Shown here: positions 12,906 to 62,110 of the stretch, piece after piece
Layout of the letters: every line of letters begins with the position of its first letter
Position numbering within the stretch: position 1 is the first letter of the stretch
Source of the DNA: an uncultured Gammaproteobacteria bacterium
Lineage (GTDB): Bacteria; Pseudomonadota; Gammaproteobacteria; UBA9214
Length of the DNA: 64,000 nucleotides
Assembly: GCA_963753755.1 (NCBI GenBank)
Contig: CAVWDM010000005.1
Span: 138,559 to 202,558, forward strand
Direction of reading: 5' to 3'
Notes under the pieces: generated by a model
Database searches by the model: none
Seen by the model: the letters and a program-made list of their open reading frames with translations, nothing else
Told to the model about the DNA's origin: nothing
Position numbers and translations under genes: made by a program

Positions 12906-13430
12906 ATGTTTGGTGATCCCCTGAAAAGCATCTGCGAAGATTCACTGGAAAGAAAGTGGATCTGGATATCCCTGTTGCTGGCGTTCTTTATGGCCGGTAT
13001 GCTGGGTTTTTATGCGGTGGCCAGCAACATCCACCCGCCGAGCAATGTTGAAACCATTGACTCCTCGCGACTGCACCTGACGGAAGAATTTGCAGAGGAC
13101 AAGCTGGGAGTAACCACCAATGCGGATGGCAGTCTCACCGTTACCCTGGTGGCGGCCCGCTATGGTTTCTATCCACCGGTCATCGAAGTGCCGGCCGACA
13201 CGCCGGTGACCTTCCGCATCGCCAGCGCCGATGTGCTGCACGGTGTGCATGTGCCCTTTACCAACATGACCACCATGATCGTGCCGGGCTATATATCCGA
13301 GGTAAGGACGAGCTTTCCGCGCACCGGGGAGTTCTCCCTGCTGTGTAATGAATACTGCGGCCTCGGGCATGATTCCATGTGGTCGCGCCTGGTGGTGGTT
13401 CCTAAATCCGTGGGGGGGGCTTCATCATGA
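12906..13430 (+). CDS. heme-copper oxidase subunit II (CuA cupredoxin; ba3/sNOR-type, no cytochrome c domain)
   Basis: One N-terminal TM helix plus a cupredoxin domain with the CuA motif HGVHV...CNEYCGLGHDSM. AGGAGG RBS 7 nt upstream of the ATG at 12906. ATGA overlap with the subunit I gene. Confidence 0.8.
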   Translation: MFGDPLKSICEDSLERKWIWISLLLAFFMAGMLGFYAVASNIHPPSNVETIDSSRLHLTEEFAEDKLGVTTNADGSLTVTLVAARYGFYPPVIEVPADTPVTFRIASADVLHGVHVPFTNMTTMIVPGYISEVRTSFPRTGEFSLLCNEYCGLGHDSMWSRLVVVPKSVGGASS

Positions 13431-15050
13431 GCCGGTCAAATGCTGCCGGTATCAGCCTGGCAAGTATGTGGGTGGGTTTTACGGCCTTTGCCGTCGCGGC
13501 CCTGCTGGGTGTTTACCAGGTCATTGAAAGGATCGATCTGATCCCCGCGCTGCAATCGCCGGAACTGTATTTCGGCTCGGTGTCGACCCACGGGGTGCTG
13601 ATGGCGTTCGTGCTGACCACCTTCCTGGTGATGGGATATGGCTATTACACGGCGACCACCAGCCTTGATCAGGCGTTGTGGAACAAGCCACTGGCCTGGT
13701 TCGGTTTCTGGCTGGCCGTGATCGGTGTGCTGCTGGCGGCCGGGCCGCTGCTCACCGGTAATGCCTCGGTGCTGTATACCTTCTACCCGCCACTGCAAGC
13801 GCATCCGGCATTCTACCTCGGTGCCACGCTGCTGGTGGTGGGTTCCTGGGTGTGGTGCCTGGAGATGGTCATGATGATGACCATCTGGAAGAAGGCGCAC
13901 CCGGGTGAAACCGTGCCGCTGGCGATGTACGGCACCACGGCGAATGCCATTCTCTGGTTTATTACCAGTCTCGGGGTTGCCGCGGAAGTGCTGTTTCAAC
14001 TGCTTCCCTGGTCACTGGGGATTATCGAGACCGTCGACGTCGGCCTGGCGCGAACCCTGTTCTCCTGGACCCTGCACGCGATTGTGTACTTCTGGCTGTT
14101 CCCGGCCTACATCGCGCTGTACACCCTGTTGCCGAGTGCAGCGGGTGGCCGCTTGTTCAGTGACCAGATGGGGCGGCTGGCGTTTATCATGTTGCTGGTG
14201 TTTTCGGTGCCTATCGGTTTTCACCACCTGTACATGGATCCGTTTCAGGCGGCCGGCTGGAAGTTCCTGCACATGATGGGCACCTTCATGGTGGCCGTGC
14301 CAACCCTGATTACCGGTTTTACCATCATTGCCTCGCTGGAGATTGCCGGCAAGTTGCGTGGTGGCAAGGGGCTGTTTGGCTGGATTGGCGCGCTGCCCTG
14401 GGGTAATCCCATGGTGCTGGCGAGCCATACTGGCGATGCTGATGCTCACCTTCGGTGGCTTCGGCGGCATGATCAATGCCAGTTATGCCATGAACACCAT
14501 GGTGCATAACACCCAGTGGGTCACCGGCCACTTTCACCTCATCTTTGCAGGGACCACGGTGATCATGTACTTCGCGATTGCCTATACTCTGTGGCCGAAG
14601 ATGACGGGGCGAGCGCTGTATTCAACGCGCATGGCGTTGCATCAACTGTGGTTGTGGTTTGTCGGCATGTTGATCCTGACACTGCCCTGGCACCAGCTTG
14701 GACTGGCCGGCCAGCCACGGCGTATCTCGTCGACACCGTATGACGAATCCTTCGTGCAGGCATGGCTACCGGCCGGATCCGCCATGATCGTCGGTGGTGT
14801 CATCCTGTTTATCTCGGCGCTGATGCTGGTCTACAACCTGTTCAGGACGCATGGCAACGCCCGGGCGGAAGACAATCTTGAGGTCGAGTATGCCGAACCG
14901 CTGCATGCGATACAGCGCATGCCGCAGCTGATGAACAGCTTCGGTTTCTGGGTGCTGCTGGTGGTGGTGTACATGGTAGCCAGCTACGGTTATCCCATAG
15001 CACAGTTTTTCCTCATGGATACCTACGGTACTGTCCCATGGAGCATATGA
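13427..15050 (+). pseudogene. heme-copper oxidase subunit I (B-family / NOR-like), interrupted by a frameshift near 14410-14420
   Basis: Two overlapping ORFs in different frames (13427..14509 and 14328..15050) together give a ~540-aa subunit I (...HHLYMDPF..., ...WVTGHFHLIF..., ...GYPIAQFF...). Continuity is ...GNPMVLA|ILAMLMLTFGG..., implying a single 1-nt indel. Confidence 0.7.
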
Positions 15051-26267: not shown

Positions 26268-28481
26268 TCAGAACGCCCGGGCAGCCAGATTGCGCACGGC
26301 GGCGGCTTCCTGGTCGGCGATCGGTTCGACGCGAACGGCACATTGCTTGTAGGCCGGCTGGCGCGAATGCGGATCGAGCAGGCCGAGCGACAGGCGATTC
26401 ACACACTCATGGTAATGAAACGGGATAAATACCATGTCGCGCGAGACGCGCTGTGTGCACTGCACCATCACCACGGCATCACCGCGGCGCGAGGTCAGGC
26501 GGGCATAAGAGCCATGCTCGATGCCGAGTTCGCTCGCTGCATCCGGGTTCATCTCCATGTAAGGGGTGGGGCTGAATTTGTTGCCGTTACCGATCTTGCC
26601 GGTACGGGTGCGGGTATGAAAGTGTTCCACCACGCGACCGGAGTTCAGCCAGAACGGGTATTCCTCGTCGGGGTGTTCGTTGTTGTCAATAAATGGCAGT
26701 GCGATCAGTTTTGCCTGGCCGCTGGCAAACTGGAATTTTCCATCGGTGTACAGGCGCTGCGATCCCCCGGGTGCCGTGTCCTCGTTACAGGGCCACTGGA
26801 TGCCGCGACTGGCCTCGATCTTGTCGTAACTCATGCCCGAGTAATCCAGCAGGCGGCCCTTTGACAGCGTTTTCAGTTCCTCGAACACGCCTTCGGCCGT
26901 TTCAGGGAAATTGATCTTGCGGCCCTGTTCGAAGCGACGGGCAACCTGGTTGAAGATCCATAAATCGGTTTTCGAATTACCGTACGGTGCACAGACATTG
27001 CGTATCAGGTTGACGCGTCGCTCGGTGTTGGTGAAGCAGCCTTCCTTTTCGGCCCATATGGCTGCGGGCAGGAACACGTGGCTGTACTCGTTGGTCTCGA
27101 CATCGCGGTAGGCGTCCTGTACTACCAGGAACTCCAGTTTTTCCAGCGTCTTGCGGATGCGTGCCGTATTGGCCATGGAGGTCATCGGGTTGGTGGCGAT
27201 CAGCCACAGTCCCTTGATCTGGCCGGATTCGATCGCGGGCAGGATGTCGGTCATGAACAGGCCGCGCTTTTCCGGGAAAAATCGCCTCATCGACGCCCCA
27301 GAACGCCGCGATGTCCTTGCGGTCCTGCGCGTTTTCCAGTGCGCGGTAACCCGGCAGACCGGAGCAGGATGACCATTCACGTGTGCCCATGGCATTGCAC
27401 TGTCCGGTGATGGACAGGCTGGAGCCGCCGGGCTTGCCGATGTTGCCGGTGATCAGGTTGAGGTTGTTGATGGCGACCACGCCGTCGGAGCCGTGCGTGC
27501 TCTGGTTGATGCCCATGGTCCAGATGGTCATGGCGGTGCCGGCCTGGCCATAGACGCGTGCGACATTGCGAATGGTGTCTTCATCGATGCCGCAGATCCT
27601 TGATGCCGTGACCGGGTCGTATTGTTCGACCAGTTGTGCGAATTCCTCAAAGCCCTCGGTATGCGCCTTGATATAGCTGTCATCCTGCAGGCCTTCCTCG
27701 AGGATGACATGTGCCAGGGCATTCAGTAGCACCAGGTCGGTGCCCGGTGCGACCGGCAGATGTATGTCGGCATTCTGTGCAAACATCGTGACACGTGGGT
27801 CCACCACGATCAGCGGGAATTTGCGTTGTTCACGCATCTGCTGCAGGCGCCAGTAGATAATCGGGTGCTGCTCGGGCAGGTTGGAACCAAACGCCAGCAG
27901 GCAATCGGTGTGCTCGAAGTCATCATAGCAGCCGGGTGGTCCGTCGGAGCCAAAGGAGCGCTTGTAGCCGGAAACTGCCGACGACATGCACAGCGTGGTG
28001 TTGCCATCGTAGTTGTTGGTGCCGATCACGCCACGGGCCAGCTTGCCGAGGGTATAGAATTCCTCGGTCATGATCTGTCCGGTGGAGACAATCGAAAGGC
28101 ATCGCGTCCGTAGGTTTCCTGGATACGCTTGATCTCGCCGCTGGTCCTGTCCAGTGCCGTATTCCAGCTGGTGGGTATGAAATCCTCCCAGCGGTTGTTG
28201 CGCATCAGCGGTTGTTCACCGCGCCCGGCCGTCTTGCGGAACAGCTCGTGTTCAAACATGCCCTTGATGCAGAGTTTGCCGCGATTGACATCGGCATCGG
28301 CGACGCCCCGCGAGGCCACCGGTGCATTGTCGGCGTTCAGGCCGACTTCTATGGAACAGCCGGTTGAGCAGTAACCACAGGTCGCGTAGCGCCATTCCCT
28401 GACGTCCTTGTCAGCAATCCTGATGGGGTTCTTTTTTTTTCGTCCGAACAGCATGACCAGGTTCCGTATTTTGAACAACAA
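26268..28481 (-). pseudogene. nasA: cytoplasmic Nas/NarB-type molybdopterin oxidoreductase (assimilatory nitrate reductase-like catalytic subunit), split into three ORFs by two frameshifts
   Basis: ORFs 28068..28481 (N-terminal CGYCSTGCS FeS domain, no Tat signal), 26977..28071 (MTEEFYTLGKLARGVIGTNNYDGNTTLCMSSAV..., Nap/Nas/Fdh-type) and 26268..27395 (C-terminal MGD-binding domain). They lie in frames 2/0/2, so there are two frame changes, near 28100 and 27300. The 5' end contains an A9 tract encoding KKK. Confidence 0.75.
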
Positions 28482-28561
28482 ATCGCGGACGCGTTCCGCT
28501 CCTGCAGGTGCATCGGTTTATACAGGAGCGCATCGCATGCGCGTTATGTTGGTAAATAAAA

Positions 28562-28891
28562 TTATGCAGCAGCCTCGTTGCTCGACAGGGCCAGGAATAC
28601 CCGGCCGTTCTCGACGCGGGTGGCGTAGGTGTTGGTGCATCCCTCGTCCGGGCCAAGTGCCTCGCCACTGGCGAGATCGATCTTCCAGTTATGCAGCGGG
28701 CAGGTCACGGAGGTGCCGTGCACGATGCCCTGCGACAGCGGGCCCTTCTGATGCGGGCATTCATCCTTGATGGCGAATACCTCGTCGCCAGAAGTGCGAA
28801 ACAGGGCAATGTTGACAGTGTCTGTTTTCAGTACCCGTGCACCCAGCCTCGGGATGTCCTCCAGTTTTGCAATTTCAGTCCAGTCGTTCAT
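28562..28891 (-). CDS. nirD: nitrite reductase small subunit NirD (Rieske-type)
   Basis: 109 aa with the Rieske motif CPH...CPLH (ECPHQKG...CPLHNW). Confidence 0.85.
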   Translation of the reverse strand: MNDWTEIAKLEDIPRLGARVLKTDTVNIALFRTSGDEVFAIKDECPHQKGPLSQGIVHGTSVTCPLHNWKIDLASGEALGPDEGCTNTYATRVENGRVFLALSSNEAAA

Positions 28892-29157
28892 TGGTTATAC
28901 CCCGGGTAAATATCTGTCGCAGACGACGCAGAGAACACGGCGATTATGAGTGCAGGTTCTTTTTCGGCCGGCGGGTAAACCCGGGTTGCCCGGTTTCCGA
29001 AAAACGCTGGATAGCCGCCATCGCGGTGATGACGTGTTGTGCAGAATCCGGGTGCCCGGATGTCATGAAGTCGTATTCCTGCAAGCGCAGTTGCAGTTGC
29101 TCATCGTATTCTTTATCCATCGTTATTACCTCTGTGTTGTCTGTGGCGTAAACTCGT

Positions 29158-31592
29158 TTATGCAATCTTGAGTGGTGTGAATTCATGTGCCTCGCTGCCC
29201 TCGGCGCGCGCTTTCCACGGATCGATCTGAGCGAACTGCTGTGAATACAGGAAACGTTCATGCAGGGCCTTGCGATTGGCCTCGTTGTTGAGGATCTTTT
29301 CCTTTACATGGCTCAGGCCAACGCGTTCCACCCAGGGTGCCGTGCGTTCCAGGTAGTGTGCTTCCTCACGATACAGCTGGATGAAGGCGCCGCAGTATTC
29401 CAGCACCTGTTCCTCGGTATCGACCTTGGTCAACAGGTCGGTGACACGGACCTTGATGCCGCCATTGCCACCGATGTGCAGTTCGTAGCCGGAATCCACA
29501 CACACCACGCCAAAGTCCTTGATGGTGGCCTCGGCACAGTTGCGCGGGCAGCCGGAGACGGCCAGCTTGAACTTGTGCGGCATCCATGAGCCCCAGGTGA
29601 GTTCTTCAAGCTGTACGCCGAGACCGGTCGAGTTCTGGGTGCCGAAACGGCACCAGGTCTTGCCGGCACAGGTCTTCACGGTGCGCATGGCCTTGCCGTA
29701 GGCATGACCGGAGACAAAGCCGGCCGTGGACAGGTCATTCCACATGAACGGCAGGTCTTCCTTCCTGACGCCGAACAGGTCGATGCGTTGACCGCCGGTT
29801 ACTTTCATCTCCGGCACATTGAACTTGTCGCAGACATCGGCAATGGCGCGCAGTTCGTCCGGCTTGACCAGGCCGCCGAACATGCGCGGAACCACGGAGT
29901 AGGTGCCGTCTTTCTGGATGTTGCCGTGCGCGCGTTCGTTGATGAAGCGTGACTGCGCATCATCCTGGTATTCGTCCGGCCAGTGGGCACAGCAGGTAGT
30001 AATTCAATGCCGGCCGGCAGGCGGCACAACCGTCGGGCGATTTCCATTCGAAGAATTCGCGCACCGCCGGCATGGACTTCAGTCCTGTTTCTTGATCCCG
30101 GCGATCACCTCGTCATGGCTGTACTCGGTGCACTTGCACATCGGTTTTTTATTCGGCGAGGCGTCATAGCCTTCACCCACGGTGCTGGCCAGCAGTGCCT
30201 CGACCAGCCCGGTGCAGGAACCGCAGGAACTGGAGGCCTTGGTATGGGCACGCACATCTTCCAGTGTAAACAGGCCGTTCTTTGGCGATGGCATTGACGA
30301 TGTCGCCCTTGCAAACACCGTTACAACCGCAGATCTCGGCCTCGTCGGAGAGCGGCATGACGCGTGTCTCGTCGCCATGACCGGCATCGCCGAGGTCATG
30401 CTGGCCGAACAGGATGGTCTTGCGAAAATCGGCAACGCTGCTGCCTTCGCGCATCAACTGGAAGTACCAGGTGCCGTCGATGGTATCGCCGTAGAGCACC
30501 GCACCCTTGATGCGGTTGTCCTTGATGACCAGCTTCTTGTAGGTGCCCGCGGCCGGGTCCTGCAGGCTGATGACCTCATCGCCTTCCGCTTCGTTGAAAT
30601 CACCGGCGGAGAACAGGTCAATGCCGGTGACCTTCAGCTTGGTGGAGGTCACCGAGCCCTTGTAGCTGGCATAGCCGAGGTCGGCGAGCTGATTGGCAGC
30701 CACCTTGGCCTGTTCGAACAGCGGCGCCACCAGCCCGTAGGCAATGCCGCGGTGCTGTGCACACTCACCCACGGCGTAGATGGCCGGGTCAAAGGTCTGC
30801 ATGGCGTCATTGACGACGATGCCGCGTTCGCAGTGCAGCCCGGCCTCTTTGGCAAGTCGTGCAATTCGGCAGGATACCGACACCCATAACCACGAGGTCG
30901 GCCTCGACGACACTGCCATCCTTGAAGCGCACGCCCTGCACGCGGCCGTTACCGATTATTTCCTCGGTGGCTGCCTCCATCAGGAAGTTCATGCCGCGCT
31001 GTTCCAGCGAGGCCTTCAGCAGGGCCGATGCCGGCTTGTCGAGCTGGCGTTCCATGAGGCTGTCCAGAAGGTGTACGACCGTGACATCCATGCCCTGTTT
31101 CATCAGGCCGTTGGCGGCTTCCAGTCCCAGCAGACCGCCGCCGATGACAACCGCCTTTTGGTAATCCTTTGCTGCCTGCAGCATGGTGTCGACATCGTGA
31201 ATATCGCGGAAGGCGATGACGCCATCCTTGTCCTTGCCCGGCACCGGAATCATGAACGGGTTGGAGCCGGTGGCCAGCAACAGGCGGTCGTACTCGGCCG
31301 TGGTGCCGTCATCGGCAATGACCTTCTTGTTCAGGCGATCAATGTCGGTCACTGATTTGCCTTTATGGAGGGTAATGCCATTGTCGCTGTACCACTGTTC
31401 GTCATTGAGCATGATGTCATCGACGGTCTTCTCACCAGCGAGTACCGGTGACAGCATGATGCGGTTGTAGTTACCGTAGGGCTCGGCGCCGAACACTGTG
31501 ATGTCGTATTTATCCGGAGCGATTTTCAGCAACTCTTCCAGGGTGCGTACCCCGGCCATGCCGTTGCCTACCAGTACCAGTTTTTCTTTCAT
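29158..31592 (-). pseudogene. nirB: NAD(P)H-nitrite reductase large subunit NirB, broken by at least three frameshifts
   Basis: N-terminal FAD/NAD domain (MKEKLVLVGNGMAGVRTLEEL...) in ORF 30807..31592; middle in 30173..30919 and 30079..30435; C-terminal sirohaem/FeS domain in 29158..29895. The pieces lie in three different frames across a ~2.4-kb span that matches an ~810-aa NirB. Confidence 0.8.
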
Positions 31593-31796
31593 GGGGTTGA
31601 TGCACCTGCTTACTTAAGTGATGCTGTTCCTCTAGCAAGGTTTGTACCAGCAGGGCAGGAGATCAGGGTGCATGTTATTAACTCGCTGATTTAGATAGTC
31701 AGTTTTGGTGCGCTTCTGCCGGGCTCCAGGACGGCGACTGCACAGGTCCGATGATGTTGTGCACTAGGATGGCGCAGCGGTACGCAGGTCGCACCT

Positions 31797-31816
31797 TATA
31801 TAACCCTATATAACCC
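31797..31816. repeat. perfect tandem duplication TATATAACCC x2 in the nirB-nasT divergent intergenic region
   Basis: Two adjacent 10-bp copies in a region that is otherwise >60% GC. Confidence 0.6.
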
Positions 31817-32016
31817 TGGTTTTCATGATGGGCCATGCAGCTCTGTTGTTGTGTGGACATGACGCCTGCCACACCGCCGGGCACCTGCTTGATGCATGCG
31901 CCACGCGCATGCGTCATCCTGGCGCACGGCGCGAGGTGACAGCGGCAGGGGTGATGCCTCTCAACGGTTGCAATGGACTGATTTAATTAATAAACCCCGA
32001 AGTAGCGAGTGCTGGC

Positions 32017-32634
32017 ATGAAAATTGACTTGTTTTTTTGCAGATCAAATCATATGGGGTCGCTGGTGAACTTGCTGGTCGTTGCGGAACAAGCGGGACAA
32101 AGTGCTCCCTATATCAAGGCGGCCAGTAAGGCCGGCTGGCACATCGCGTCTGAGCTGAGCTATGACCGTTTGCCGGTGGCGTTGACAGATATCCAGGTGG
32201 ATGCCGCCGTGTTGATCGCACAGTGTATCGACGACAACGTTCTCAAGGCTGTGCGCCTGTTTAACAGCCGCTGGCCCTTGCCGGTGGTGTTGTACACCGA
32301 CGATTCACATCAGCGTTCTATTCGTGCAGCGGTAATGGCCGGTGTTTCCGTATATGCCGTTGATTGTCAGAACGTCAATCGCATTGCCGCGCTACTCGAT
32401 GTAGCGATGGTTCGTTTTAGTGAATCGCAGCAACTGAAAAAGGCTTTGCACAAGGCCAAAACTTCACTGACAGAGCGCAATACCGTGGAGAAGGCCAAGG
32501 GGATCATCATGCGTCAGCGCCAGCTCAACGAGGATGCCGCCTACAGGTTGTTGCGCAAGCTCGCCATGGATCGTAACCGGCGTATCGGCGAAGTGGCCGG
32601 AGAAGTCATTGCCGCTGCCGAGGTGTTGATCTGA
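32017..32634 (+). CDS. nasT: ANTAR-domain response regulator NasT (nitrate-responsive antiterminator)
   Basis: REC-like N-terminus and C-terminal ANTAR motif (EKAKGIIMRQRQLNEDAAYRLLRKLAMDRNRRIGEVA). Divergent from nirB. Confidence 0.8.
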   Translation: MKIDLFFCRSNHMGSLVNLLVVAEQAGQSAPYIKAASKAGWHIASELSYDRLPVALTDIQVDAAVLIAQCIDDNVLKAVRLFNSRWPLPVVLYTDDSHQRSIRAAVMAGVSVYAVDCQNVNRIAALLDVAMVRFSESQQLKKALHKAKTSLTERNTVEKAKGIIMRQRQLNEDAAYRLLRKLAMDRNRRIGEVAGEVIAAAEVLI

Positions 32635-32869
32635 ACAAACGGCCTGTCGCACGCACTGTCACGGTGCAACAGATGCATGCATCCGGTGAACATGGCTGAC
32701 GGTCAATGCTGATGACGGGGTGTAAGTCACTGTATTTCTCTCAGCGACTGTATTGGCACGGTTAATGCTATACACATTGTAGAATTAAACGGCAGCAGGC
32801 CAGTGACGGTGTGCTGCAAATCGCCGGTAATGTTGCCGGCAGCGAACAAAGGCGTTCTCCCTGACCGGT

Positions 32870-32905
32870 CATCAGACCCGTCGGGGTGAGCGTTTTTTTT
32901 TGGGT
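32870..32905 (+). promoter_or_regulatory. GC-rich stem followed by a T9 tract immediately 5' of the downstream operon; terminator-like leader element, a candidate for NasT (ANTAR) antitermination
   Basis: ...GACCCGTCGGGGTGAGCG-TTTTTTTTT at 32875-32901, only ~10 nt upstream of the ATG at 32912. Intrinsic-terminator architecture downstream of an ANTAR regulator gene. Confidence 0.4.
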
Positions 32906-32911
32906 TAAATC

Positions 32912-34882
32912 ATGAGCCAGGCAGACAACATTGCAGTTGCAGAACGTCACTACGCGGCGGAATGGCAGCAACCACCGACAGTGATCGTCGGGGTCGGGCC
33001 GGTCGGGCAGCGACTTGCGGCTGAATTAAGACAACACGATGCTGAACGTGAAATCGTTATGTTCGGTGATGAACCCTGGGCACCGTACGACCGGGTGCAA
33101 CTGTCATCCTGGCTTGCCGGAGAGAAGCGCGCTGGCGCTACGATGAGCGAAGATGCCCATCTACGGGTGCATCTCGGTATGTCGATAACCCGTATTGACA
33201 GGGCGAACCGCGAGGTCGTCGATGCGCGTGGCATTGCCTGTCCCTATGAAACCCTGATACTGGCAACCGGATCGCGTGCCAGTATCCCGCCGTTGCCGGG
33301 TATCCGTTTGCCGGGCGTGTTCACGTTCAGGAACCTGTCGGATGCCCAGGCACTCATGGCACGCAGTGTGCGCAGTCGCAGCGTGGTCGTCATTGGCGGT
33401 GGTCTGCTGGGTCTGGAAACAGCACGTGCACTGCGTCGCTTCCAGACCCATGTCACCATCATCGAGCAATCCGAACGCCTCATGTACCAGCAACTCGATG
33501 CTGACTGTGCGGCTCTGTTGCAGCAGCATGTCGAGGGACTCGGCATCGACGTCGTCACCCGTGCACGGGTCAAACGCATACTGGGAGAAACCCGCCTGCA
33601 GGGAGTGCTGTTGTCGGACAGCCGCTTTATAGAATGTGACACCGTGGTGATGGCCGTGGGCATTACGCCCAATATCCAGCTGGCGCGCGCTAGCGGGTTG
33701 CATATCGCACGGGGTGTGCTGGTGAATGACCACATGCAGACCAGTGATAGCCATATCTATGCTGTGGGTGAATGTGCCGAACACCGGCACACCGTTTACG
33801 GGCTGGTGGCCCCGGGTTTTGAGCAGGCGGCCGTGGCGGCACACGTCCTCTCCGGGCGCGCTGCGGAATACAGTGGCTCGATGACCGCGACACGCCTCAA
33901 GGTGCTCGGTTACCCGGTGATGAGTGTCGGTACCGCCGAGAGTGAATGGCCACGCCGTCCACTGGTCTATCGTGAGCGTGGAACGGGTACGTTACGCAAG
34001 GTGTTTCTCGATGGTAACCGCCTCGATGCGGCCATGGCGCTCGGTAGCTGGGACGAGTTCAGCCGGGTTCAGGAGGGCGTGCGTATGCGGCGGCGAATTC
34101 GGCCATGGCGCGCACTGCGTTTTCGTCTTACCGGCACACTCTGGTCGGCAGAAGGCGAGGGCGGCGTGGCTGGTTGGCCCGCTGCAGCGACGGTCTGCAA
34201 CTGTATGGGGGTGAGCCGTGGTGCCCTGACCCGGGCCGTGGATCAGGGCTGCGCCGATGTGGCCTGTCTTGCCAGTTACACCGGTGCCTCCAGCGTGTGC
34301 GGTTCCTGCAAGCCCTTGCTGGTGCAGTTGCTGGGCGCAACGGAAATAACGCCGGTTGTTGCAGCGCGCGCATTGACAGCCACAGCGTTTGTGGTCGCGG
34401 TTGCCACGCTGCTGTGGCTGTTGCCGCTTAGTCTCCCCTATGCGCACAGCGTGCAGTTGTCGCCACATATCGATGCGTTGTGGCGCAATGGCCTGTACAA
34501 GCAGATCAGCGGCTTCGGCCTGCTGGGATTGTCGCTGATATTGGCTCTGGTGTCGGTGCGCAAGCGCGTGCGTCGGCTGCGCTGGGGCAGCTTTGACGGC
34601 TGGCGCGTGCTGCATGTAATGGTCGGGCTGCTGACGGTCGCCGTGCTGGTGGCACATACCGGTTTCCGCCTCGGTGACAATCTCAATTTCTACCTGATGT
34701 GTGTGTATGCAGGCCTGATGCTGGCCGGTGCGGCCGCCAGTGCCGTGGTCGGCCTGCAGCATGTATTACCGCTAACACTGGCGCGGCGCAGCCGTGAACT
34801 GTCACTCTGGTCACATGTGCTGCTGCTCTGGCCGCTGCCGGCACTGCTCGGTTTTCATATCCTGAAAACCTACTGGTACTAG
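32912..34882 (+). CDS. NirB-like FAD/NAD(P)H pyridine-nucleotide-disulfide oxidoreductase fused to BFD-like [2Fe-2S] Cys motifs and a C-terminal 4-5 TM membrane domain
   Basis: N-terminal ~400 aa resemble the NirB/NasC reductase domain (GxGxxG motifs VIVGVGPVGQRLA and VVIGGGLLGLETA). Then CNCMGV...CGSCKP Cys motifs. The final ~200 aa are hydrophobic with conserved His residues. Confidence 0.6.
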   Translation: MSQADNIAVAERHYAAEWQQPPTVIVGVGPVGQRLAAELRQHDAEREIVMFGDEPWAPYDRVQLSSWLAGEKRAGATMSEDAHLRVHLGMSITRIDRANREVVDARGIACPYETLILATGSRASIPPLPGIRLPGVFTFRNLSDAQALMARSVRSRSVVVIGGGLLGLETARALRRFQTHVTIIEQSERLMYQQLDADCAALLQQHVEGLGIDVVTRARVKRILGETRLQGVLLSDSRFIECDTVVMAVGITPNIQLARASGLHIARGVLVNDHMQTSDSHIYAVGECAEHRHTVYGLVAPGFEQAAVAAHVLSGRAAEYSGSMTATRLKVLGYPVMSVGTAESEWPRRPLVYRERGTGTLRKVFLDGNRLDAAMALGSWDEFSRVQEGVRMRRRIRPWRALRFRLTGTLWSAEGEGGVAGWPAAATVCNCMGVSRGALTRAVDQGCADVACLASYTGASSVCGSCKPLLVQLLGATEITPVVAARALTATAFVVAVATLLWLLPLSLPYAHSVQLSPHIDALWRNGLYKQISGFGLLGLSLILALVSVRKRVRRLRWGSFDGWRVLHVMVGLLTVAVLVAHTGFRLGDNLNFYLMCVYAGLMLAGAAASAVVGLQHVLPLTLARRSRELSLWSHVLLLWPLPALLGFHILKTYWY

Positions 34883-34884
34883 GA

Positions 34885-36318
34885 ATGAGTGATGCAATAA
34901 CGCGGCGCATACTCTGGGGTGTCTGGTTGCTGGCAACGATCGGCCTGCTGGCATGGCTGACAAACAGCATGTTGAACGAGGCCGCGGACAAGCACATCTT
35001 CATGCCCGGTGAGTTGTCAGCGGGTCATTACCAGTTGCAGCTGGCGTGCGTGTCCTGTCACAGTGATCCTCTTGGTGGTGCTGACGTGCTGCAGCAGGCC
35101 TGTGTCGACTGTCATGGAGACGAGCGCAAGAAGCCGTTTGATTCACACCCGCCAGGCAAGTTCAGGGACCCGCGCAATGCAGACCGTCTGGAAAATATAG
35201 ACGCACTGCATTGCGTCACTTGTCATTCGGAGCATCGCCCGGAGATCACGCGTAAAAACGGCGTCACCCAGCCTCGCGACCTGTGTATTCATTGCCACGA
35301 GGATATTGCCGGGGACCGTCCCAGTCACAGCGGTATGGCGTTCACCCGTTGTGCGGACAGCGGGTGCCATAATTTTCACAACAACCGTTCACTGTACACG
35401 AAATTCCTTATCAAGCACCTGGACGAACCGGCATTGCTGCAAGAGCCACTGCTGCCGCAACGTGAATTCGCACAGCTGCTCGATCAGATCGTTGAGTACC
35501 CGCTGCAGCAGTACCCGCAGCAAGCGCTGTTACTGCAGGATGCGGATGGTGATTCCGAATTTGTGGACCTGCAGGGTGAGACGCCGCATGCGGACTGGGC
35601 GGCGACTGCCCATGCAAAGTCGGGAGTGAACTGCTCTGCCTGTCATCAACCAAAGGCTCAGGACGGCACGCAAGCTGCCTGGACTGATTATCCGGATGAA
35701 CAGGTTTGCTCGATTTGCCACAGCCTCGAGGTGGAACGCTTTGCCAGGGGCAAGCATGGCATGCGACTCGCCGCCGGGTTACCCGCGCTGAGTGTCAGTG
35801 ATGCACGTTTACCGATGCGCACGGAGGCAGCACACGAGTCACTGACCTGTCACAGCTGCCATTTGGCGCACCGATATGATGTCCGTCAGGCCGCCGCCGA
35901 GGCCTGTGTGGCTTGCCACGAGGATACGCACACGCTGGCGTACGAGGGTTCACCGCACCACATGCTGTGGCAACAGGAACTGAGCGGTGAGTTGCCTGCG
36001 GGCAGCGGTGTGTCCTGTGCAAGCTGCCACATGCCGCGTATTGAGTTTGACGTCAGCGACTGGCTGACACGCGTCATGGTTGACCACAACCAGAGTGCCA
36101 ACCTGTCACCGAATTCCAAGATGATACGCAGTGCCTGCCTGAACTGTCACGGGCTTGGGTTTTCCATCGATGCGCTGGCGGATCAACGCCTGATCGACAA
36201 CAACTTCCGCGGCAGCCCGTCATTGCACATCGATACCATGGATCTGGCTGCCGCGGAAAAGGAGCGCCGTGATAGTGAGGCGGGTGCGGATGATGACACG
36301 AGTATGTTCGGGTTCTGA
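34885..36318 (+). CDS. membrane-anchored multihaem c-type cytochrome (~11 haem-binding motifs)
   Basis: N-terminal TM helix. Ten CxxCH motifs (CVSCH, CVDCH, CVTCH, CIHCH, CSACH, CSICH, CHSCH, CVACH, CASCH, CLNCH) plus one CxxxxCH (CADSGCH). Only a 3-nt gap from the upstream gene. Confidence 0.7.
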   Translation: MSDAITRRILWGVWLLATIGLLAWLTNSMLNEAADKHIFMPGELSAGHYQLQLACVSCHSDPLGGADVLQQACVDCHGDERKKPFDSHPPGKFRDPRNADRLENIDALHCVTCHSEHRPEITRKNGVTQPRDLCIHCHEDIAGDRPSHSGMAFTRCADSGCHNFHNNRSLYTKFLIKHLDEPALLQEPLLPQREFAQLLDQIVEYPLQQYPQQALLLQDADGDSEFVDLQGETPHADWAATAHAKSGVNCSACHQPKAQDGTQAAWTDYPDEQVCSICHSLEVERFARGKHGMRLAAGLPALSVSDARLPMRTEAAHESLTCHSCHLAHRYDVRQAAAEACVACHEDTHTLAYEGSPHHMLWQQELSGELPAGSGVSCASCHMPRIEFDVSDWLTRVMVDHNQSANLSPNSKMIRSACLNCHGLGFSIDALADQRLIDNNFRGSPSLHIDTMDLAAAEKERRDSEAGADDDTSMFGF

Positions 36319-36361
36319 TTTTTTTATTCACACACTTCCATAGTGAAACAGGAGAGAGTCG

Positions 36362-36952
36362 ATGAGTATCAAGCTGAAAAGCAGTATCGGTGTAGCTGTC
36401 TGTCTGTGTATCGGTGTTGCCGTGGCGGCAGAACCGGGTTCTGAAACGGTGTCCGTAAAGGCGATGGCCGATGCGCTGCACATGGTCATGGATTCCGATC
36501 GCACCGTGTACACGAAGACTATCGTCAACCGGCTGGTGAAGAAAGACAAGGTCATCAAGGCCTCCGAGCACTTCGAGGATGACCAGGCGCTGGCCCTGCC
36601 GGCTCAGATGTTTCGCTTTGGCGCCGAGATGGTGTCTGAGCGTTCTGCTGATAATCCGGACGTGAACTTCAGCTATTCACTGCAATCGCTGTGGCCGGTG
36701 AACAAGCAGAATGCGCCGCAGACCGACGCCGAGAAGGAAGGGCTTGAGTTTGTCGCTGAAAACATTGGCAAAAACTACTACACCACCGAGACACTCGGAG
36801 ACCAGGAATACTTTACCGCTGTTTACGCCGATACCGGCGTCGCCCCGGTCTGTGTCTCATGTCATAACGCCCACCCGGATTCACCGCGAACGGATTTCAA
36901 GCTGGGTGATGTCATGGGCGGTGTGGTGATTCGCATCCCGGTTGAAGGCTAG
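36362..36952 (+). CDS. DUF3365 / Tll0287-like periplasmic c-type haem protein
   Basis: Signal peptide, PAS-like DUF3365 sequence, and a single C-terminal CxxCH (PVCVSCHNAHP). Confidence 0.55.
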   Translation: MSIKLKSSIGVAVCLCIGVAVAAEPGSETVSVKAMADALHMVMDSDRTVYTKTIVNRLVKKDKVIKASEHFEDDQALALPAQMFRFGAEMVSERSADNPDVNFSYSLQSLWPVNKQNAPQTDAEKEGLEFVAENIGKNYYTTETLGDQEYFTAVYADTGVAPVCVSCHNAHPDSPRTDFKLGDVMGGVVIRIPVEG

Positions 36953-36990
36953 AACGTCGGCATTACTTTTTAACAGACAGGAGAGCAGAT

Positions 36991-37407
36991 ATGCTTACAA
37001 CGGAACAAATCAAAATGGTGCAGTATTCCTGGGCGCAGGTGGTACCGATAGCTGACAAGGCAGCAGAGCTGTTTTACGGCAGGTTGTTTGAACTGGACCC
37101 CACGCTGAAACCCATGTTCAAGGGCGATATGGTCGAGCAGGGACAGAAGCTCATGCGCATGATCCACATTGCCGTCGATAATCTCGACAAGCTCGATGAC
37201 ATCGTACCGGCGGTACAGGACCTTGGCGTGAAGCACCTCGAGTACGGCGTGAAAAACTCCCACTATGACACGGTGGGCGCGGCCTTGCTGTGGACGCTGG
37301 GACAGGGACTCGGCGATGCGTTTACAACAGAGGTCAGGTCTGCCTGGACCGAAGTCTACGGACTGCTGGCCAGCACCATGAAGGATGCGGCCAGGGAAGC
37401 GGCCTGA
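36991..37407 (+). CDS. single-domain globin (bacterial haemoglobin-like)
   Basis: 138-aa globin fold sequence (…QYSWAQVVPIADKAAELFYGRLFELDPTLKPMFKG…VKHLEYGVKNSHYDTVGAALLWTL…). Confidence 0.7.
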   Translation: MLTTEQIKMVQYSWAQVVPIADKAAELFYGRLFELDPTLKPMFKGDMVEQGQKLMRMIHIAVDNLDKLDDIVPAVQDLGVKHLEYGVKNSHYDTVGAALLWTLGQGLGDAFTTEVRSAWTEVYGLLASTMKDAAREAA

Positions 37408-37426
37408 TTTTAAGTAAGCGGTCTCT

Positions 37427-37596
37427 GCAGCAGACACGATCCGTCTTTCCACTGTAAACAGGACAACAGCGCAAGATGCGTTGAACACTCAAAGGACGGC
37501 CACAGGGGAAGGGCAGCCAGTCATCCAGCCGCCTGGATCCCGGTCTTTGCCGGGGTGATGAATCAGCGCGTGTGTTGACATGATCGTGTCTGCTGC
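37427..37596. repeat. pair of 16-bp perfect inverted repeats (GCAGCAGACACGATC / GATCGTGTCTGCTGC) separated by ~140 bp
   Basis: Left arm 37427-37441 and right arm 37582-37596, inside the 470-bp globin-nrtA intergenic region. Either MITE-like or a long-range leader RNA stem. Confidence 0.55.
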
Positions 37597-37882
37597 AAGG
37601 CCTGGTCTTCATTTACCGCGCCTGGCGTCATTCAGCACCTGAAGTTCCCGGGGAGCTTTCCGGTATCGCCCTGGACGGTGTTGCTAATGATGCACCGCGC
37701 TGGTTGCATGTTGCACCATATGGGTGCGAGTTGCCGTTGGCTTTTCCATTCTCTCATTTTGTCTCCAGCCAGATCAGTCACATACGTCGTTGGCACGGAA
37801 CCTGCTAATAACCTTGTAGACAGGCTGCAATGAGGCAGTGGAGTGTACAGATGGTGCACTCATTAATTAACTGGGGAAGGAG

Positions 37883-39292
37883 ATGTACATGAAGATCAAG
37901 CTGGACTGGACATCGCTGGCTAACGTGGGCCAGCGCATGCAGCGATCACTGTCGGCTGTTGCCGTTATGGGCCTTATGGTGGTTGCCCAGCACCCTGTCA
38001 TGGCAGGTGAGCTGGAAAAGGAAGATCTGAAATTCGGCTTTATCAAGCTGACTGATATGGCGCCCCTGGCGATTGCCTACGAGAAGGGGTATTTCGAGGA
38101 TGAGGGTCTGTACGTCATGCTGGAAGCGCAGGCCAACTGGAAGGTGCTGCTGGATCGTGTCATCGATGGTGAACTGGATGGTGCCCACATGCTGGCCGGT
38201 CAGCCACTGGGCGCAACCATCGGTTTTGGTACCAAGTCGGATATCATTACCGCGTTCAGCATGGACCTGAACGGTAACGGTATTACGGTCTCCAACAGTA
38301 TCTGGGAGCAGATGAAGGAGCACGTCCCGCACCAGGACGGTAAGCCCGTTCACCCGATCAAGGCGGATTACCTGAAGCCGGTGGTGGATAAGTATATCAA
38401 GGAAGGCAAGCCCTTCAAGATGGGCATGGTGTTCCCGGTCTCCACGCATAATTACGAGCTGCGCTACTGGCTGGCGGCTGGCGGTATCCACCCCGGCTTT
38501 TATGCCCCCGAAAGCGGTGATATCACCGGCCAGATCGATGCCGAGGCGTTGCTGTCCGTGACACCACCACCCCAGATGCCATCGACAATGGAGGCCGGCA
38601 CGATCTATGGCTACTGCGTCGGTGAGCCCTGGAACCAGCAGGCCGTATTCAAGGGCATTGGCGTACCGGTGATTACCGATTATGAGATCTGGAAGGACAA
38701 TCCCGAGAAGGTCTTCGGTGTTTCAAAAGAATGGGCTGAGGAGAATCCGAATACCCACAAGGCGGTACTGAAGGCGCTGATCCGGGCCGCGATGTGGCTG
38801 GATTCCGGTGGTCTGGAAAACCGCAAGGAAGCGGCGAAGATCATGTCGCGCCCGGAGTATGTTGGTGCTGACTACGAAGTGATTGCCAACAGCATGACCG
38901 GTACCTTCGAGTACGAAAAGGGCGACAAGCGCTCGGTACCTGATTTCAACGTGTTCTTCCGTTACAACGCCACCTATCCGTATTACTCGGATGCTGTCTG
39001 GTACCTGAGCCAGATGCGCCGCTGGGGACAGATCGGCGAGTACAAACCGGATAGCTGGTATATGGACACGGCGAAGCAGGTGTACCGCCCGGATCTGTAT
39101 GCCGAGGCCGCTGAGGAACTGATTGCCGAGGGCAAGGCGAAGGCGGAAGACTTTCCTGATTTTGCCAGCGAGACCGGGTTCCGTGCGCCGCAAACAGAGT
39201 TTATCGATGGCATCACCTACGATGGCACCAAGCCAAATGCCTACCTTGCACAGTTCCCGATAGGCCTGAAAGGCGAGGACAAGGTGAACTGA
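37883..39292 (+). CDS. nrtA: nitrate/nitrite ABC transporter periplasmic substrate-binding protein (NrtA/CmpA family)
   Basis: Signal peptide plus NrtA-family sequence, followed by permease and ATPase genes. Confidence 0.75.
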
Positions 39293-39370
39293 TCAGTACA
39301 TGCCGTTGGCCATTGGCCCGCACGCCACCCCGTGTGCGGGCCTTTTTTAAATGAGCGAGTAGAGGGTGAT

Positions 39371-40337
39371 ATGTGTACGGAAACGATGAAGATATTTCAG
39401 CTGCAGGACTACCAGGAGGCCGCCAGGGCATTCTTATTGCCACTGATCGCCTTTCTCCTGTTTCTCGGCTTGTGGAGTTTTGCAGCATCACGCATCGAGA
39501 CGTCACTGGGGCAGTTGCCCGGACCTGCAGCGGTCTGGGAGCAGGCGAGTAATCTGGTCGCTGAACACCGTGCAGGAACGCGACAAGGCGCTTGCCTTTA
39601 TCGAGCGTCAGGAAGTGCGCAACCAGGCAAAGCTGGCGAAAGACCCGAGCGCAGAGGTACGCATCCGTCCCTATACGGGCAAACCGACCTTCTTTGACCA
39701 GATCGGCACCAGTCTGCTGACCGTGTTTACCGGCTTTCTGCTGGCAACGGTCATCGCGGTGCCGCTGGGTGTATTCACCGGCTTGAGCAGTAATGTTTAC
39801 CGGGCAATCAATCCGATTGTGCAGATCTTCAAGCCGGTGTCGCCGCTGGCGTGGCTGCCGATTGTCACCATTATCGTCAGTGCCGTTTATGTCACCGATG
39901 ACCCTATGTTTTCCAAATCCTACGTGACCTCCGCCATCACCGTCACCCTGTGTTGCCTGTGGCCGACCCTGATCAACACGGCGGTCGGTGTGTCATCCAT
40001 GGATCGGGACCTGGTGAATGTCGGCAAGGTGCTGCGCCTTGGCTGGTTCACCACGGTATGGAAGATTGCGTTGCCCTCGGCTGTTCCGATGATCTTTACC
40101 GGTCTGCGCCTGAGCCTGAGTATTGGCTGGATGGTGCTGATTGCAGCGGAGATGCTGGCACAAAATCCGGGGTTGGGTAAATTCGTCTGGGATGAATTCC
40201 AGAATGGCAGCTCCAATTCGCTGGGCCGCATTATGGTGGCCGTGTTTACCATCGGACTGATCGGATTCTTGCTGGATCGCATGATGCTGCTGCTGCAACG
40301 TCGTGTGTCCTGGGACAAGGACGCTGTATTGCGCTAG
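39371..40337 (+). pseudogene. nrtB: nitrate ABC transporter permease NrtB, N-terminus frameshifted
   Basis: The N-terminal TM segment is in ORF 39332..39697 and the rest in 39480..40337 in another frame; junction at about 39540-39560 (...GPAAVWEQA... then ...[19 protein letters not shown]...). The downstream part is a typical ABC permease (EAA-like region). Confidence 0.7.
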
Positions 40338-40381: not shown

Positions 40382-41263
40382 GTGATGAGTGATAAATATC
40401 TGAATATTGATCACGTGTCGATGGTGTTCGACACACCTGCCGGACCGTTCAAGGCGCTAGATAACGTCGACCTGGTGATCGCAAGGGGTGAGTATGTCTC
40501 GCTGATCGGTCATTCGGGTTGCGGCAAGTCGACGGTACTGAATGTCGTTGCTGGTTTGTTGCAGGCCACCACAGGCGGTGTGGTGCTCGATGGTACCGAG
40601 GTCGATGAACCCGGCCCCGAGCGAGCAGTTGTATTCCAGCACCATTCGCTGATGCCATGGCTGACGGCCTATGAAAATGTTGAACTGGCCGTTCAGCAGG
40701 TATTCAAGGGAAAAAAGAGCAAGCCCGAGATGCGCGAATGGATTGAATACAATCTGAAGCTGGTGCATATGGAACATGCCATGGATAAATTACCCGGTGA
40801 AATCTCCGGCGGCATGAAACAGCGTGTCGGCATTGCACGCGCACTCGCGATGCAACCCAAGGTGTTGTTGATGGATGAGCCGTTCGGTGCACTGGATGCG
40901 CTGACGCGTGCACACATGCAGGATTCACTGATGGAAATTCAGAACGAACTCGGCAATACCGTGATCATGATTACGCATGATGTTGATGAAGCGGTACTGT
41001 TGTCTGATCGAATTGTCATGATGACCAATGGTCCGGCAGCCACCATCGGGCAGATTCTTGACATCAAGCTGGAGCGACCGCGTAACCGCGTTGCCCTGGC
41101 GGATAGCGCCGAGTACAACCATTACAGGGCGGAAGTGCTGAAGTTCCTCTATGAACGCCAGCGCAACCCCGAGTCGGGAGATAGCAATAGCAGGAAGGAT
41201 AATGTGCAGGGAAGCGCGGAGGACAAACCGTTACAGGTGGTTGCCGGTATTGCCGCCGCCTGA
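40382..41263 (+). CDS. nrtD: nitrate/sulfonate/bicarbonate ABC transporter ATP-binding protein (NrtC/NrtD-like)
   Basis: Walker A GHSGCGKST, ABC signature LSGGMKQRVGIARAL, Walker B LLMDEPFGALD. Confidence 0.8.
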   Translation: MMSDKYLNIDHVSMVFDTPAGPFKALDNVDLVIARGEYVSLIGHSGCGKSTVLNVVAGLLQATTGGVVLDGTEVDEPGPERAVVFQHHSLMPWLTAYENVELAVQQVFKGKKSKPEMREWIEYNLKLVHMEHAMDKLPGEISGGMKQRVGIARALAMQPKVLLMDEPFGALDALTRAHMQDSLMEIQNELGNTVIMITHDVDEAVLLSDRIVMMTNGPAATIGQILDIKLERPRNRVALADSAEYNHYRAEVLKFLYERQRNPESGDSNSRKDNVQGSAEDKPLQVVAGIAAA

Positions 41264-41432
41264 GGGCGGTAATAGTCACTTTTTAATGTTCGTAGCTGTT
41301 CACAATGTTCTAGTAACATTGTATATGTAGCATAAATCGATCGCACTTGTTCATGACCATTTTGGCAGCAAGTTCGTACAGCGTCCGTACGAGCAATTCC
41401 TGCCCATTCCGATTTTTGTAGGAGAACGAGTC

Positions 41433-41880
41433 ATGAAGATCGATACACCGAGCGCACGCAGCAAACTGTCTCCCCGTCGAGAGCCATTTGGTGTGCCCTG
41501 GGAAAGGGCAAGTCCATCGGTTACCGTGCCGCTTCCGGCCCTTGGATCGTACGCTGACGGTATCAGGCAAGCCCGGCACCCACGACATGGTGCTGTCCAA
41601 CGAGGCCAAGACATTCTTTAACACACAGGCACAGGACAAACTCCCGAAGGCGTTGCTATTAAAACCTGATGGAGGTTTCAGTGGAATCGTAATCACGTGG
41701 GGAGGTGCTGCAAAGAGGCTGAACAGACGGAGTATCACAACACACCCGAGTAATTCCTCACCCAACCCCCTGCTTGACGAGCTGGGGAATATTATTATAC
41801 CTGTCCAGTTACCCCCCCACCCGATGTTGGACTCAATTATCCCCTGTAGATTGATGAACGTGGAAGTTCACAAATCGTTA
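41433..41880 (+). mobile_element. decayed tyrosine-recombinase (phage-type integrase) N-terminal remnant, marking the left border of an acquired low-GC region
   Basis: Spread over two frames: MKIDTPSARSKLSPRREPF | WCALGKGKSIGYRAASGPW..., matching the lambda-like integrase N-terminal pattern (LTPREKDYFVWD..LKGFGVRV.PSG.K.Y..QYR). No catalytic domain follows. GC content drops sharply after 41290. Confidence 0.45.
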
Positions 41881-41891
41881 AGTGACAGGAG

Positions 41892-51443: not shown

Positions 51444-51471
51444 CTCGCCTCAACCCGTGTTTGTGGCAGGG

Positions 51472-62062: not shown

Positions 62063-62110
62063 CTTCTTTAACCTCCTTCTGTCTGTGTATGAAAACGCGT
62101 GACACAGCTG

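Follow-up and report, generated by a model that had tools for sequence, protein, structure and literature searches.

Genes of the locus

The window, by which we mean the whole 64-kb stretch of DNA that was analysed, belongs to a source contig of 552,242 bp that is listed in NCBI and ENA without protein accessions and was deposited unannotated. It contains genes for the assimilation of nitrate and nitrite, together with a respiratory oxidase gene outside that group:

13427..15050, plus strand: ba3-type (B-family) haem-copper oxidase subunit I; one single-base insertion
26268..28454, minus strand: nasA, assimilatory nitrate reductase catalytic subunit; two single-base indels
28562..28891, minus strand: nirD, nitrite reductase small subunit; intact (TIGR02378, 98 bits, cut-off 75)
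29158..31592, minus strand: nirB, NAD(P)H nitrite reductase large subunit; four single-base indels
32017..32634, plus strand: nasT-like ANTAR regulator; intact (PF03861 ANTAR)
37889..39292, plus strand: nrtA-like periplasmic binding protein; one uninterrupted ORF, syntenic with relatives
39386..40337 (start about 39386), plus strand: nrtB, putative nitrate ABC transporter permease; one single-base insertion
40385..41263, plus strand: nrtD, nitrate ABC transporter ATPase; intact (TIGR01184, 339 bits, cut-off 292)

The product of nirB spans five frame segments instead of a single uninterrupted frame. Once repaired, the protein (812 aa) scores 945.5 bits against TIGR02374 (cut-off 578), its residues 5-795 corresponding to positions 1-788 of the 794 in the profile, and it is 89-92% identical to intact homologues of 810-812 aa, whose domains are PF07992, PF04324, PF03460 and PF01077, in line with the FAD/NAD, BFD-like 2Fe-2S and sirohaem (NIR_SIR) domains expected of the enzyme; by its match to this equivalog family above the cut-off, the repaired product is assigned as NirB. 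The NirD protein is identical in L001, a contig of another read set (an independent public assembly) that is 99.47% identical to the window. The L001 copy of nasA, 99.5% identical to that of the window, is intact and encodes 728 aa with the domains Molybdop_Fe4S4 (PF04879), Molybdopterin (PF00384) and Molydop_binding (PF01568), scoring 485-527 bits against the NasC/NasA models, under their strict equivalog cut-offs. The twin-arginine motif is absent from the NasA N-terminus and the gene adjoins nirD. Without a Tat signal, with an Fe4S4 domain at its N-terminus and with its gene linked to nirBD, the predicted Mo-bisMGD enzyme is of the NasA type.

Identical copies of the NasT-like protein occur in contigs from four other read sets, and of NrtD in two. 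The nrtA-like protein has no NCBIfam match at E <= 1e-10. Repaired NrtB (316 aa) aligns to relatives over residues 1-316 with identity of up to 87%; its best family match, TIGR01183 ntrB at 149.5 bits, lies below the cut-off of 209, and the order nrtA-nrtB-nrtD is that of relatives. As a whole the set resembles the proteobacterial assimilatory nitrate regulon (nasT, nrtABD or nasFED, nirBD, nasA), with matches for NirB, NirD, NrtD, ANTAR and a NasA-type molybdoenzyme and an order conserved in relatives. It differs from that regulon in a conserved four-gene insert between nasT and nrtA, encoding a NirB-like flavoprotein, a multihaem cytochrome, a Tll0287-like protein and a globin, and in a fused DmsB/DmsC-like gene that comes next after nasA.

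In the oxidase gene the Pfam COX1 profile is broken over two ORFs (2-297 and 309-436), and residues 13-528 of the repaired protein (540 aa) align to Thermus ba3 oxidase subunit I at E = 3e-118, gap-free across the junction. An earlier, sequence-only reading of the window had described the genes flanking the disrupted ones as intact. This holds for nirD, nasT, nrtA, nrtD, napA, the Cu-ATPase gene, both dabA copies and the DUF2126 gene, all of which match their families end to end, but not for the oxidase gene with its +1 shift. The nap genes in the window are intact. At 44595-44966 lies an SRAP-like fragment, a truly decayed remnant whose N-terminal half is unrecognisable.

Position and context of the frameshifts

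The breaks were mapped by DNA alignment of nirB with seven relatives, of nrtB with six and of nasA with L001. That these genes are split over several frames is borne out, and each break is one single-base indel:

nirB, 30858..30869 (about 30864), minus strand: +1, CCGAATTGCACG (gene strand) against CCGAA-TGC in relatives; a single gap column over seven relatives
nirB, 30273..30285 (about 30280), minus strand: +1, CCAAAGAACGGCC against CCAAA-CACGGCC in relatives (DNA alignment)
nirB, 30077..30092 (about 30083), minus strand: -1, CAGGA-CTGAAG against CACGAACTGAAG in relatives
nirB, 29983..29995 (about 29989), minus strand: +1 T, CTGCTGTGCCCAC against CTGCTG-GCC in relatives
nasA, 28090..28100 (at 28096), minus strand: -1 C, GCCTT-TCG against GCCTTCTCG in L001
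nasA, 27272..27285 (at 27277), minus strand: +1 T, GATTTTTCC against GATGTT-CC in L001
nrtB, 39569..39581 (about 39574), plus strand: +1, CGTGCAGGAACGC against CGTGC-CGAACG in relatives
ba3 oxidase subunit I, 14420..14432, plus strand: +1, GCGAGCCATACTG; the frame changes between ...NPMVLAS and ILAMLML...

It is clear that the frameshifts are truly present in the sequence as given. The earlier count of at least three in nirB becomes four (three +1, one -1), those of two in nasA (-1 and +1) and one in nrtB (+1) stand, and the oxidase gene adds one (+1). The deletion in nirB leads to an immediate TGA stop; the aligner placed its gap at 30091, and fewer mismatches result if it is set at 30082/30083. 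Compared with L001, the nasA deletion has a synonymous C>T change at a distance of 5 nt, and the extra T in nasA is coupled with a G>T change 3 nt away. With one SNP per 130 nt, a substitution 3-5 nt from both nasA indels has an estimated chance of about 0.007. Simple slippage does not explain about half of the indels, among them a G>TT change.

The clustering of the indels exceeds chance. Under uniform spread, the probability of at least seven of eight falling within 5.6 of 64 kb is about 3e-7, and that of at least six of eight within the 5.3 kb of the nirB-nirD-nasA operon about 8e-6. Over 29370-26709 the window departs from the other strain by about 0.8%, compared with 1/2619, 1/1700 and 6/3937 in the flanks. 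All six operon indels lie within or adjoin this tract, which is the part of the operon open to comparison and the one in which the window diverges most from that strain. The base substitutions that set the window apart from other samples show a synonymous, evolutionary pattern.

One site had been thought to lie in an A9/T9 homopolymer. The T9 in question (28432-28440) encodes KKK near the NasA N-terminus, is the same in intact L001 and is 336 nt from the nearest indel, and the claim falls. The longest run is of five bases at one indel site and of two or three at the other seven. General consensus quality looks good, since other assemblies bear out all four of the 7-9-base homopolymers open to comparison. 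The eight sites, at which +1 and -1 shifts are mixed, have no slippery heptamer or long A/T run in common; the sole common 5-mer, GCGAT (four of the eight), occurs 189 times in the window and is not significant once the number of 5-mers is allowed for.

Comparison with orthologues, which the sequence-only reading had proposed as a check, finds the shifts absent at the DNA level from 13 nirB and nrtB relatives and from L001 nasA. The seven nirB and six nrtB relatives are indel-free except for one single-base insertion in one nrtB (L008); all 126 full-length NirB homologues are uninterrupted, as are the 60-71 NasA and 34 NrtB relatives aligned by tblastn, with no stop codon in those checked. No same-species sequence was found over the nirB, nrtB or oxidase sites, and the proxy for nasA, L001, is a different strain at 99.5% identity. 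At least six sequencing runs have yielded read sets with near-identical sequences, which suggests that the window's population is widespread and free-living.

Conservation of the repaired proteins

With the eight bases corrected, all of the genes become full length and highly conserved proteins are restored. Repaired nirB, nasA and nrtB are without large deletions and in-frame stops, in agreement with the earlier statement that they carry no large deletions and no obvious accumulation of premature stops. Set against their relatives, repaired NirB, NasA and NrtB show no change at any of 914 highly conserved residues: 0/454 in NirB at positions at least 97% conserved in 126 homologues (which themselves have a median of one difference there and a maximum of 14), 0/315 in NasA and 0/145 in NrtB. 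Conserved codons are about half of the total, and a random substitution strikes a conserved residue with an estimated probability of about 0.37. The absence of any such change therefore limits neutral substitutions to about six (95% bound), against seven indels in these genes. In spontaneous bacterial mutation about ten substitutions arise per indel. Repaired NasA differs from the intact NasA of L001 at 3/728 residues, with three non-synonymous and 14 synonymous changes, indicating that the gene stayed under purifying selection for practically the whole of the time since the two strains diverged. A decaying pseudogene would be recognised by excess non-synonymous change, lost conserved residues, nonsense codons and deletions; none of these signs was found in nirB, nasA or nrtB.

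Probable consensus error and its alternatives

The explanation that we consider likely is that the eight frameshifts are consensus errors of the assembly and not mutations carried by the living cell. In the organism itself, nirB, nasA, nrtB and the ba3 oxidase gene are most probably functional. This reading is favoured over decay because the damage consists of single-base indels only, the amino acid sequences show no decay, and a further frameshift lies in an unrelated oxidase gene. The intact nasA of a close strain, the uninterrupted genes of the relatives, the repeated hits in nirB and nasA and the SNP-rich setting of the operon indels also count in its favour. The sequence-only reading had held inactivation and poor consensus to be equally likely; poor consensus gains from the indel-only damage, the 0/914, the 3 against 14 changes in NasA and the hit in the oxidase gene, and the equal weighting is lost. 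The source is probably a long-read metagenome assembly, a platform suggested by the long, unannotated contig and by its Nanopore relatives. Among the close relatives are several MAGs assembled from Nanopore data alone, their contigs measuring 150-380 kb, and the closest include Nanopore-only MAGs that had received a single round of Medaka polishing (PMC12313526). Nanopore bins under about 40-fold coverage have been reported to need short-read polishing (PMC9262707). Residual indels would be expected to concentrate where consensus calling is hardest, which here would be the nirB-nirD-nasA operon; in its comparable part the assembled haplotype departs most from co-occurring strains, and collapsed strain variation or lower effective coverage may have produced the cluster of errors, and the lone indels in nrtB and the oxidase gene would represent the background error rate. 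Several observations stand against consensus error: no long homopolymer, the classic context of long-read error, is present at any of the eight sites; the homopolymers checked are correct and the substitutions synonymous; and seven of the eight indels fall in one metabolic pathway, the picture expected of a biological loss. Were the assembly a short-read de Bruijn one, in which reads supply all k-mers, the indels would be real variants.

The hits in one pathway, the non-homopolymer sites and the correct homopolymers also argue that this strain has truly, and very recently, had its assimilatory nitrate and nitrite reduction inactivated, the indels being true alleles, an explanation that we regard as unlikely while according it some weight. 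Such a cell, without import of nitrate or its reduction to ammonium for growth, would use ammonium or organic nitrogen and keep periplasmic Nap for respiration, in keeping with the intact nap genes, and the window's real-looking, synonymous substitutions speak for good consensus at the base level. Neutral decay fits poorly because seven indels have accumulated without accompanying substitution damage, and selection for loss fits poorly because nirB has four indels and nasA two, where one per gene suffices. The surplus indels would not be selectable and could have built up only over a long neutral period, a possibility excluded by the substitution data. In addition, nasA is intact in the 99.5%-identical strain, the frameshifted oxidase gene makes the damage other than pathway-specific, and about half of the indels are not simple slippage. 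An inactivation, if real, must be extremely recent and mutationally odd. In full, it would mean that a free-living sulfur-oxidising gammaproteobacterial strain very recently lost nitrate uptake, nitrate and nitrite reduction and its ba3 oxidase through a burst of non-homopolymer indels almost without substitutions, which is decidedly improbable; if true, it would point to an unusual mutational process at the nirBD-nasA operon, biased towards indels and possibly locally targeted.

Old pseudogenes, decaying in a lineage restricted to a host or fed by ammonium in which selection had long been relaxed, would typically have several disruptions per gene, as found here, but are very improbable given the unchanged conserved residues, the freedom from in-frame stops and deletions, the low ratio of non-synonymous to synonymous change in nasA and the widespread free-living population suggested by the other runs; the SRAP-like fragment at 44595-44966 shows for comparison what true decay looks like in this window. 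Functional recoding, with programmed ribosomal frameshifting or transcriptional slippage restoring the proteins, has in its favour no more than frameshifts in genes that are undamaged otherwise, and the mixture of shifts, the want of a common slippery motif or long A/T run, and the unshifted state at all seven nitrate-gene sites of 13/13 nirB and nrtB relatives and of L001 nasA make it barely credible.

Pathway-specific pseudogenisation in bacteria after a niche change, for instance where host-restricted lineages shed assimilation pathways, likewise leaves several genes of one pathway frameshifted among intact neighbours. True cases also show substitutions, nonsense codons and deletions, and usually one founding lesion per gene; the window differs in its lack of substitution decay, in the intact 99.5%-identical strain and in the unrelated oxidase hit. 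Taken at face value, the frameshifts would have the organism annotated as nitrate-assimilation-negative, distorting the metabolic reconstruction of a sulfur-oxidising, nitrate-respiring sediment bacterium. The four-part pattern of indel-only damage, unchanged conserved residues, an intact near-identical allele and a hit in an unrelated gene can guard against false calls of pathway loss in MAGs. Consensus error of the kind proposed here resembles the residual indel errors of long-read MAGs, revealed by IDEEL-type tests, in which single-base indels split conserved genes and correction restores full length. Classic errors of that kind occur in homopolymers all along the genome, whereas here, on what is probably a long-read platform, no long homopolymer is involved and a single 5.3-kb operon holds six of the eight indels, which would make the window a concrete case of consensus errors gathered in one operon independently of homopolymers.

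Single-base indels in the nitrate-assimilation genes and beyond

The nirB, nasA and nrt genes belong to the proteobacterial assimilatory nitrate regulon and are ordinary representatives of it, and their gene order is conserved in Sedimenticolaceae-like relatives. "Repaired" refers here to a translation after correction of the single-base indels, and L001 is a near-identical contig from another public read set. The genes are arranged as follows:

31592..29158, minus strand: nirB, matching the NirB equivalog model after repair
28891..28562, minus strand: nirD
28454..26268, minus strand: nasA, with an intact 728-aa counterpart in L001
32017..32634, plus strand: nasT-like ANTAR regulator
37889..39292, plus strand: nrtA, beyond a four-gene insert
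about 39386..40337, plus strand: nrtB
40385..41263, plus strand: nrtD

The frameshifts that had been read in nirB, nasA and nrtB were borne out base by base in DNA alignments with relatives and with L001, which derives from an independent read set (run ERR11523668), is 99.47% identical to the window over 4363 bp and encodes an uninterrupted NasA of 728 aa. At least three shifts had been proposed for nirB; their presence is upheld and the actual count is four, with the NirB reading passing through five frame segments on three-frame translation and exactly four single-column gaps falling in the window on alignment with seven relatives. The indels in these genes are:

about 30864, minus strand: nirB, extra base
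about 30280, minus strand: nirB, extra base
about 30083, minus strand: nirB, missing base (gap placed at 30091 by the aligner)
about 29989, minus strand: nirB, extra T
28096, minus strand: nasA, missing C relative to L001
27277, minus strand: nasA, extra T relative to L001
about 39574, plus strand: nrtB, extra base relative to six relatives

Gene intactness elsewhere was judged by per-ORF coding scores together with Pfam coverage. Apart from the frameshifted genes, every long gene matches its family end to end: napA and the nap accessory genes, the Cu-ATPase, fccB, soxYZ, two dabA/dabB pairs, and the genes for the DUF2126 and ATP-grasp proteins. The earlier description of flanking genes as intact does not extend to the whole window, as an oxidase gene is also frameshifted:

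12906-13430: COX2-like gene, preceding oxidase subunit I
13427-15050, plus strand: ba3-type (B-family) haem-copper oxidase subunit I, one extra base, shift at 14420-14432
15038-15718: dihaem cytochrome c gene, following oxidase subunit I

When all substantial ORFs were scanned with Pfam, the COX1 profile was divided between ORFs 13427-14509 (profile positions 2-297) and 14328-15050 (309-436), and the frame changes at 14420-14432, between ...LPWGNPMVLAS and ILAMLMLTFGG.... Removal of one base yields a 540-aa protein, residues 13-528 of which align to the Thermus ba3 oxidase subunit I (E = 3e-118), free of gaps at the repaired junction. Across the window there are eight single-base indels in all, of which six are insertions and two are deletions; seven of the eight lie in nitrate-assimilation genes (chance of such clustering 3e-7) and six in the 5.3-kb nirB-nirD-nasA operon (8e-6).

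Two further candidate disruptions were rejected. The stop at 62111 is not a nonsense mutation and divides two genes, the second of which is equipped with a ribosome-binding site and an ATG of its own, and the ORFs overlapping at 24317-24462 meet at an ordinary gene boundary.

62111-63388, minus strand: 425-aa protein, no family match, in frame ahead of the following gene
61760-62110, minus strand: CBM48/AMPK-like carbohydrate-binding protein of about 97 aa, a separate gene with its own ribosome-binding site

Sequence context and strain differences

One frameshift site had been assigned to an A9/T9 homopolymer, an assignment that fails on comparison with the intact L001 allele, in which the T9 run at 28432-28440 is identical; this run supplies codons for Lys-Lys-Lys close to the NasA N-terminus. 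A homopolymer cause was rejected, the T9 run being no shift site and the longest run at any of the eight sites being 5. A common sequence or methylation motif was likewise rejected: GCGAT lies near four of the eight sites but occurs 189 times in the window, and its enrichment is not significant once the number of 5-mers tested is corrected for.

Relative to L001, the window carries 21 substitutions, mostly synonymous, in the tract 29370-26709 (nirB 3' end, nirD and nasA), a density of about 0.8% as against at most 0.15% in the flanks. The next 1700 bp of this comparison hold one substitution, and the flanking near-identical contigs L002 and L084 differ from the window at 1 position in 2619 bp and 6 in 3937 bp, respectively, with no indels. 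Over the stretch from the nirB 3' end through nirD and nasA that L001 covers, the operon bearing six of the eight indels therefore coincides with the tract in which this assembly's haplotype diverges most from a co-occurring strain. A base substitution lies 3-5 nt from each nasA indel. Ten synonymous SNPs are packed into 27715-27982, a pattern suggestive of recombination in this haplotype tract. At the flanking SNPs 31943, 40408, 40795 and 41044, contigs of different sequencing runs concur and the window differs. Compared with two independent sample pairs, the window's substitutions are synonymous and at positions common to those samples, and look like real evolutionary differences.

No same-species nirB that could verify its four sites was found in genomes, metagenomes or protein collections, and run ERR11523668 yielded no contig covering the remainder of nirB, between L001 and L002. 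The best matches reached 89-91% amino-acid identity in genome and metagenome scans, at most 92% in a protein search with full-length NirB, and, with a 204-aa query over three of the four nirB indels (FS2-FS4), at most 91% on partial matches and 78% at full coverage; nothing closer was present among the listed members of the best NirB cluster. An exact-product search gave no record of the 261-aa truncated N-terminal NirB product. Genome, metagenome, protein and exact-product searches recovered no same-species sequence over the nrtB or oxidase sites, and other read sets held no record of NrtA (three alternative starts) or of the cytochrome c and COX2-like genes adjoining the oxidase. The contig L084, which carries NrtD, begins 445 nt downstream of the nrtB indel.

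Consensus error or gene inactivation

Once the eight bases are corrected there is no other damage in the genes. Repaired NirB aligns with its equivalog model over the whole length (945 bits) and is unchanged at all 454 positions with a conservation of 97% or more among 126 homologues, which themselves carry a median of 1 and a maximum of 14 private changes at these positions. The same is true of the conserved positions of repaired NasA (0 of 315 changed) and NrtB (0 of 145), and repaired NasA differs from that of L001 by 3 residues and 14 synonymous changes. A genuinely decayed remnant is available for contrast in the SRAP-like fragment at 44595-44966. With conservation extending to about half of the codons, we estimate that a random substitution hits a conserved residue with a probability of about 0.37, and the absence of conserved changes therefore leaves room for no more than about six neutral substitutions (95% bound) since any loss of constraint, compared with seven indels. 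In mutation-accumulation studies, bacteria gain base substitutions and indels at a ratio of roughly ten to one, with the majority of indels located in runs. Neutral decay is therefore excluded, and with no conserved residue altered in any of the three repaired proteins, long-standing pseudogenes are highly improbable; that recoding restores the proteins is more improbable still.

Local consensus error is the probable explanation of the frameshifts. The source contig measures 552,242 bp and is present at NCBI and ENA without protein accessions. Among its closest relatives are several Nanopore-only MAGs with contigs of 150-380 kb; these MAGs were assembled with Flye and given a single round of Medaka polishing (PMC12313526). 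For Nanopore bins under about 40-fold coverage, short-read polishing is reported to be necessary (PMC9262707). The source is accordingly inferred to be a long-read assembly with local indel errors. Collapsed strain variation or a dip in coverage over the operon would have produced the errors there, and the nrtB and oxidase indels would reflect the background error rate. A real and extremely recent inactivation is unlikely, and it has several observations in its favor: the shift sites are not homopolymers, all four of the 7-9-base homopolymers that could be compared with other assemblies are correct, the substitutions relative to other samples appear evolutionary and synonymous, and seven hits on one pathway would naively be expected of biology rather than of noise. 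Were the assembly built from short reads only, every k-mer would be read-backed and the indels would be real variants. Selection for loss would account for one hit per gene, not for four in nirB and two in nasA, and the oxidase hit is likewise beyond its reach. A literature search for nirB or nasA pseudogenes in related bacteria returned nothing relevant.

Neighboring gene arrangements

A conserved four-gene insert (32912-37407, plus strand) separates nasT from nrtA and encodes a 656-aa NirB-like flavoprotein, devoid of the sirohaem domain and terminating in a hydrophobic, membrane-like tail, together with a 477-aa multihaem cytochrome c, a 196-aa Tll0287-like protein and a 138-aa globin. The arrangement is identical in relatives L086, L088, L089, L008 and L010, and the insert may act as a module, linked to the nitrate regulon, that senses or detoxifies nitrogen oxides. 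Immediately downstream of nasA, a 613-aa fusion of a DmsB-like 4Fe-4S domain with a DmsC-like membrane anchor (24317-26158, minus strand) is syntenic in several relatives and is an unusual partner for the nasA product, a supposedly cytoplasmic assimilatory nitrate reductase.

Rfam gave no match within the window. Two separate DAB inorganic-carbon uptake operons (2-4597 and 48927-53103, both minus strand) each pair dabA with a proton-antiporter-like dabB, and one of the DabA proteins, with at least 1040 aa, is unusually long and continues past the window start. After nrtD, the interval 41300-46270 is a gene-poor island of low GC content (about 47-48%) that contains:

42317-42922: 201-aa ORF, no family match
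43571-44308: Cu/Zn superoxide dismutase gene
44595-44966: truncated SRAP/YedK-like remnant, its N-terminal half unrecognizable
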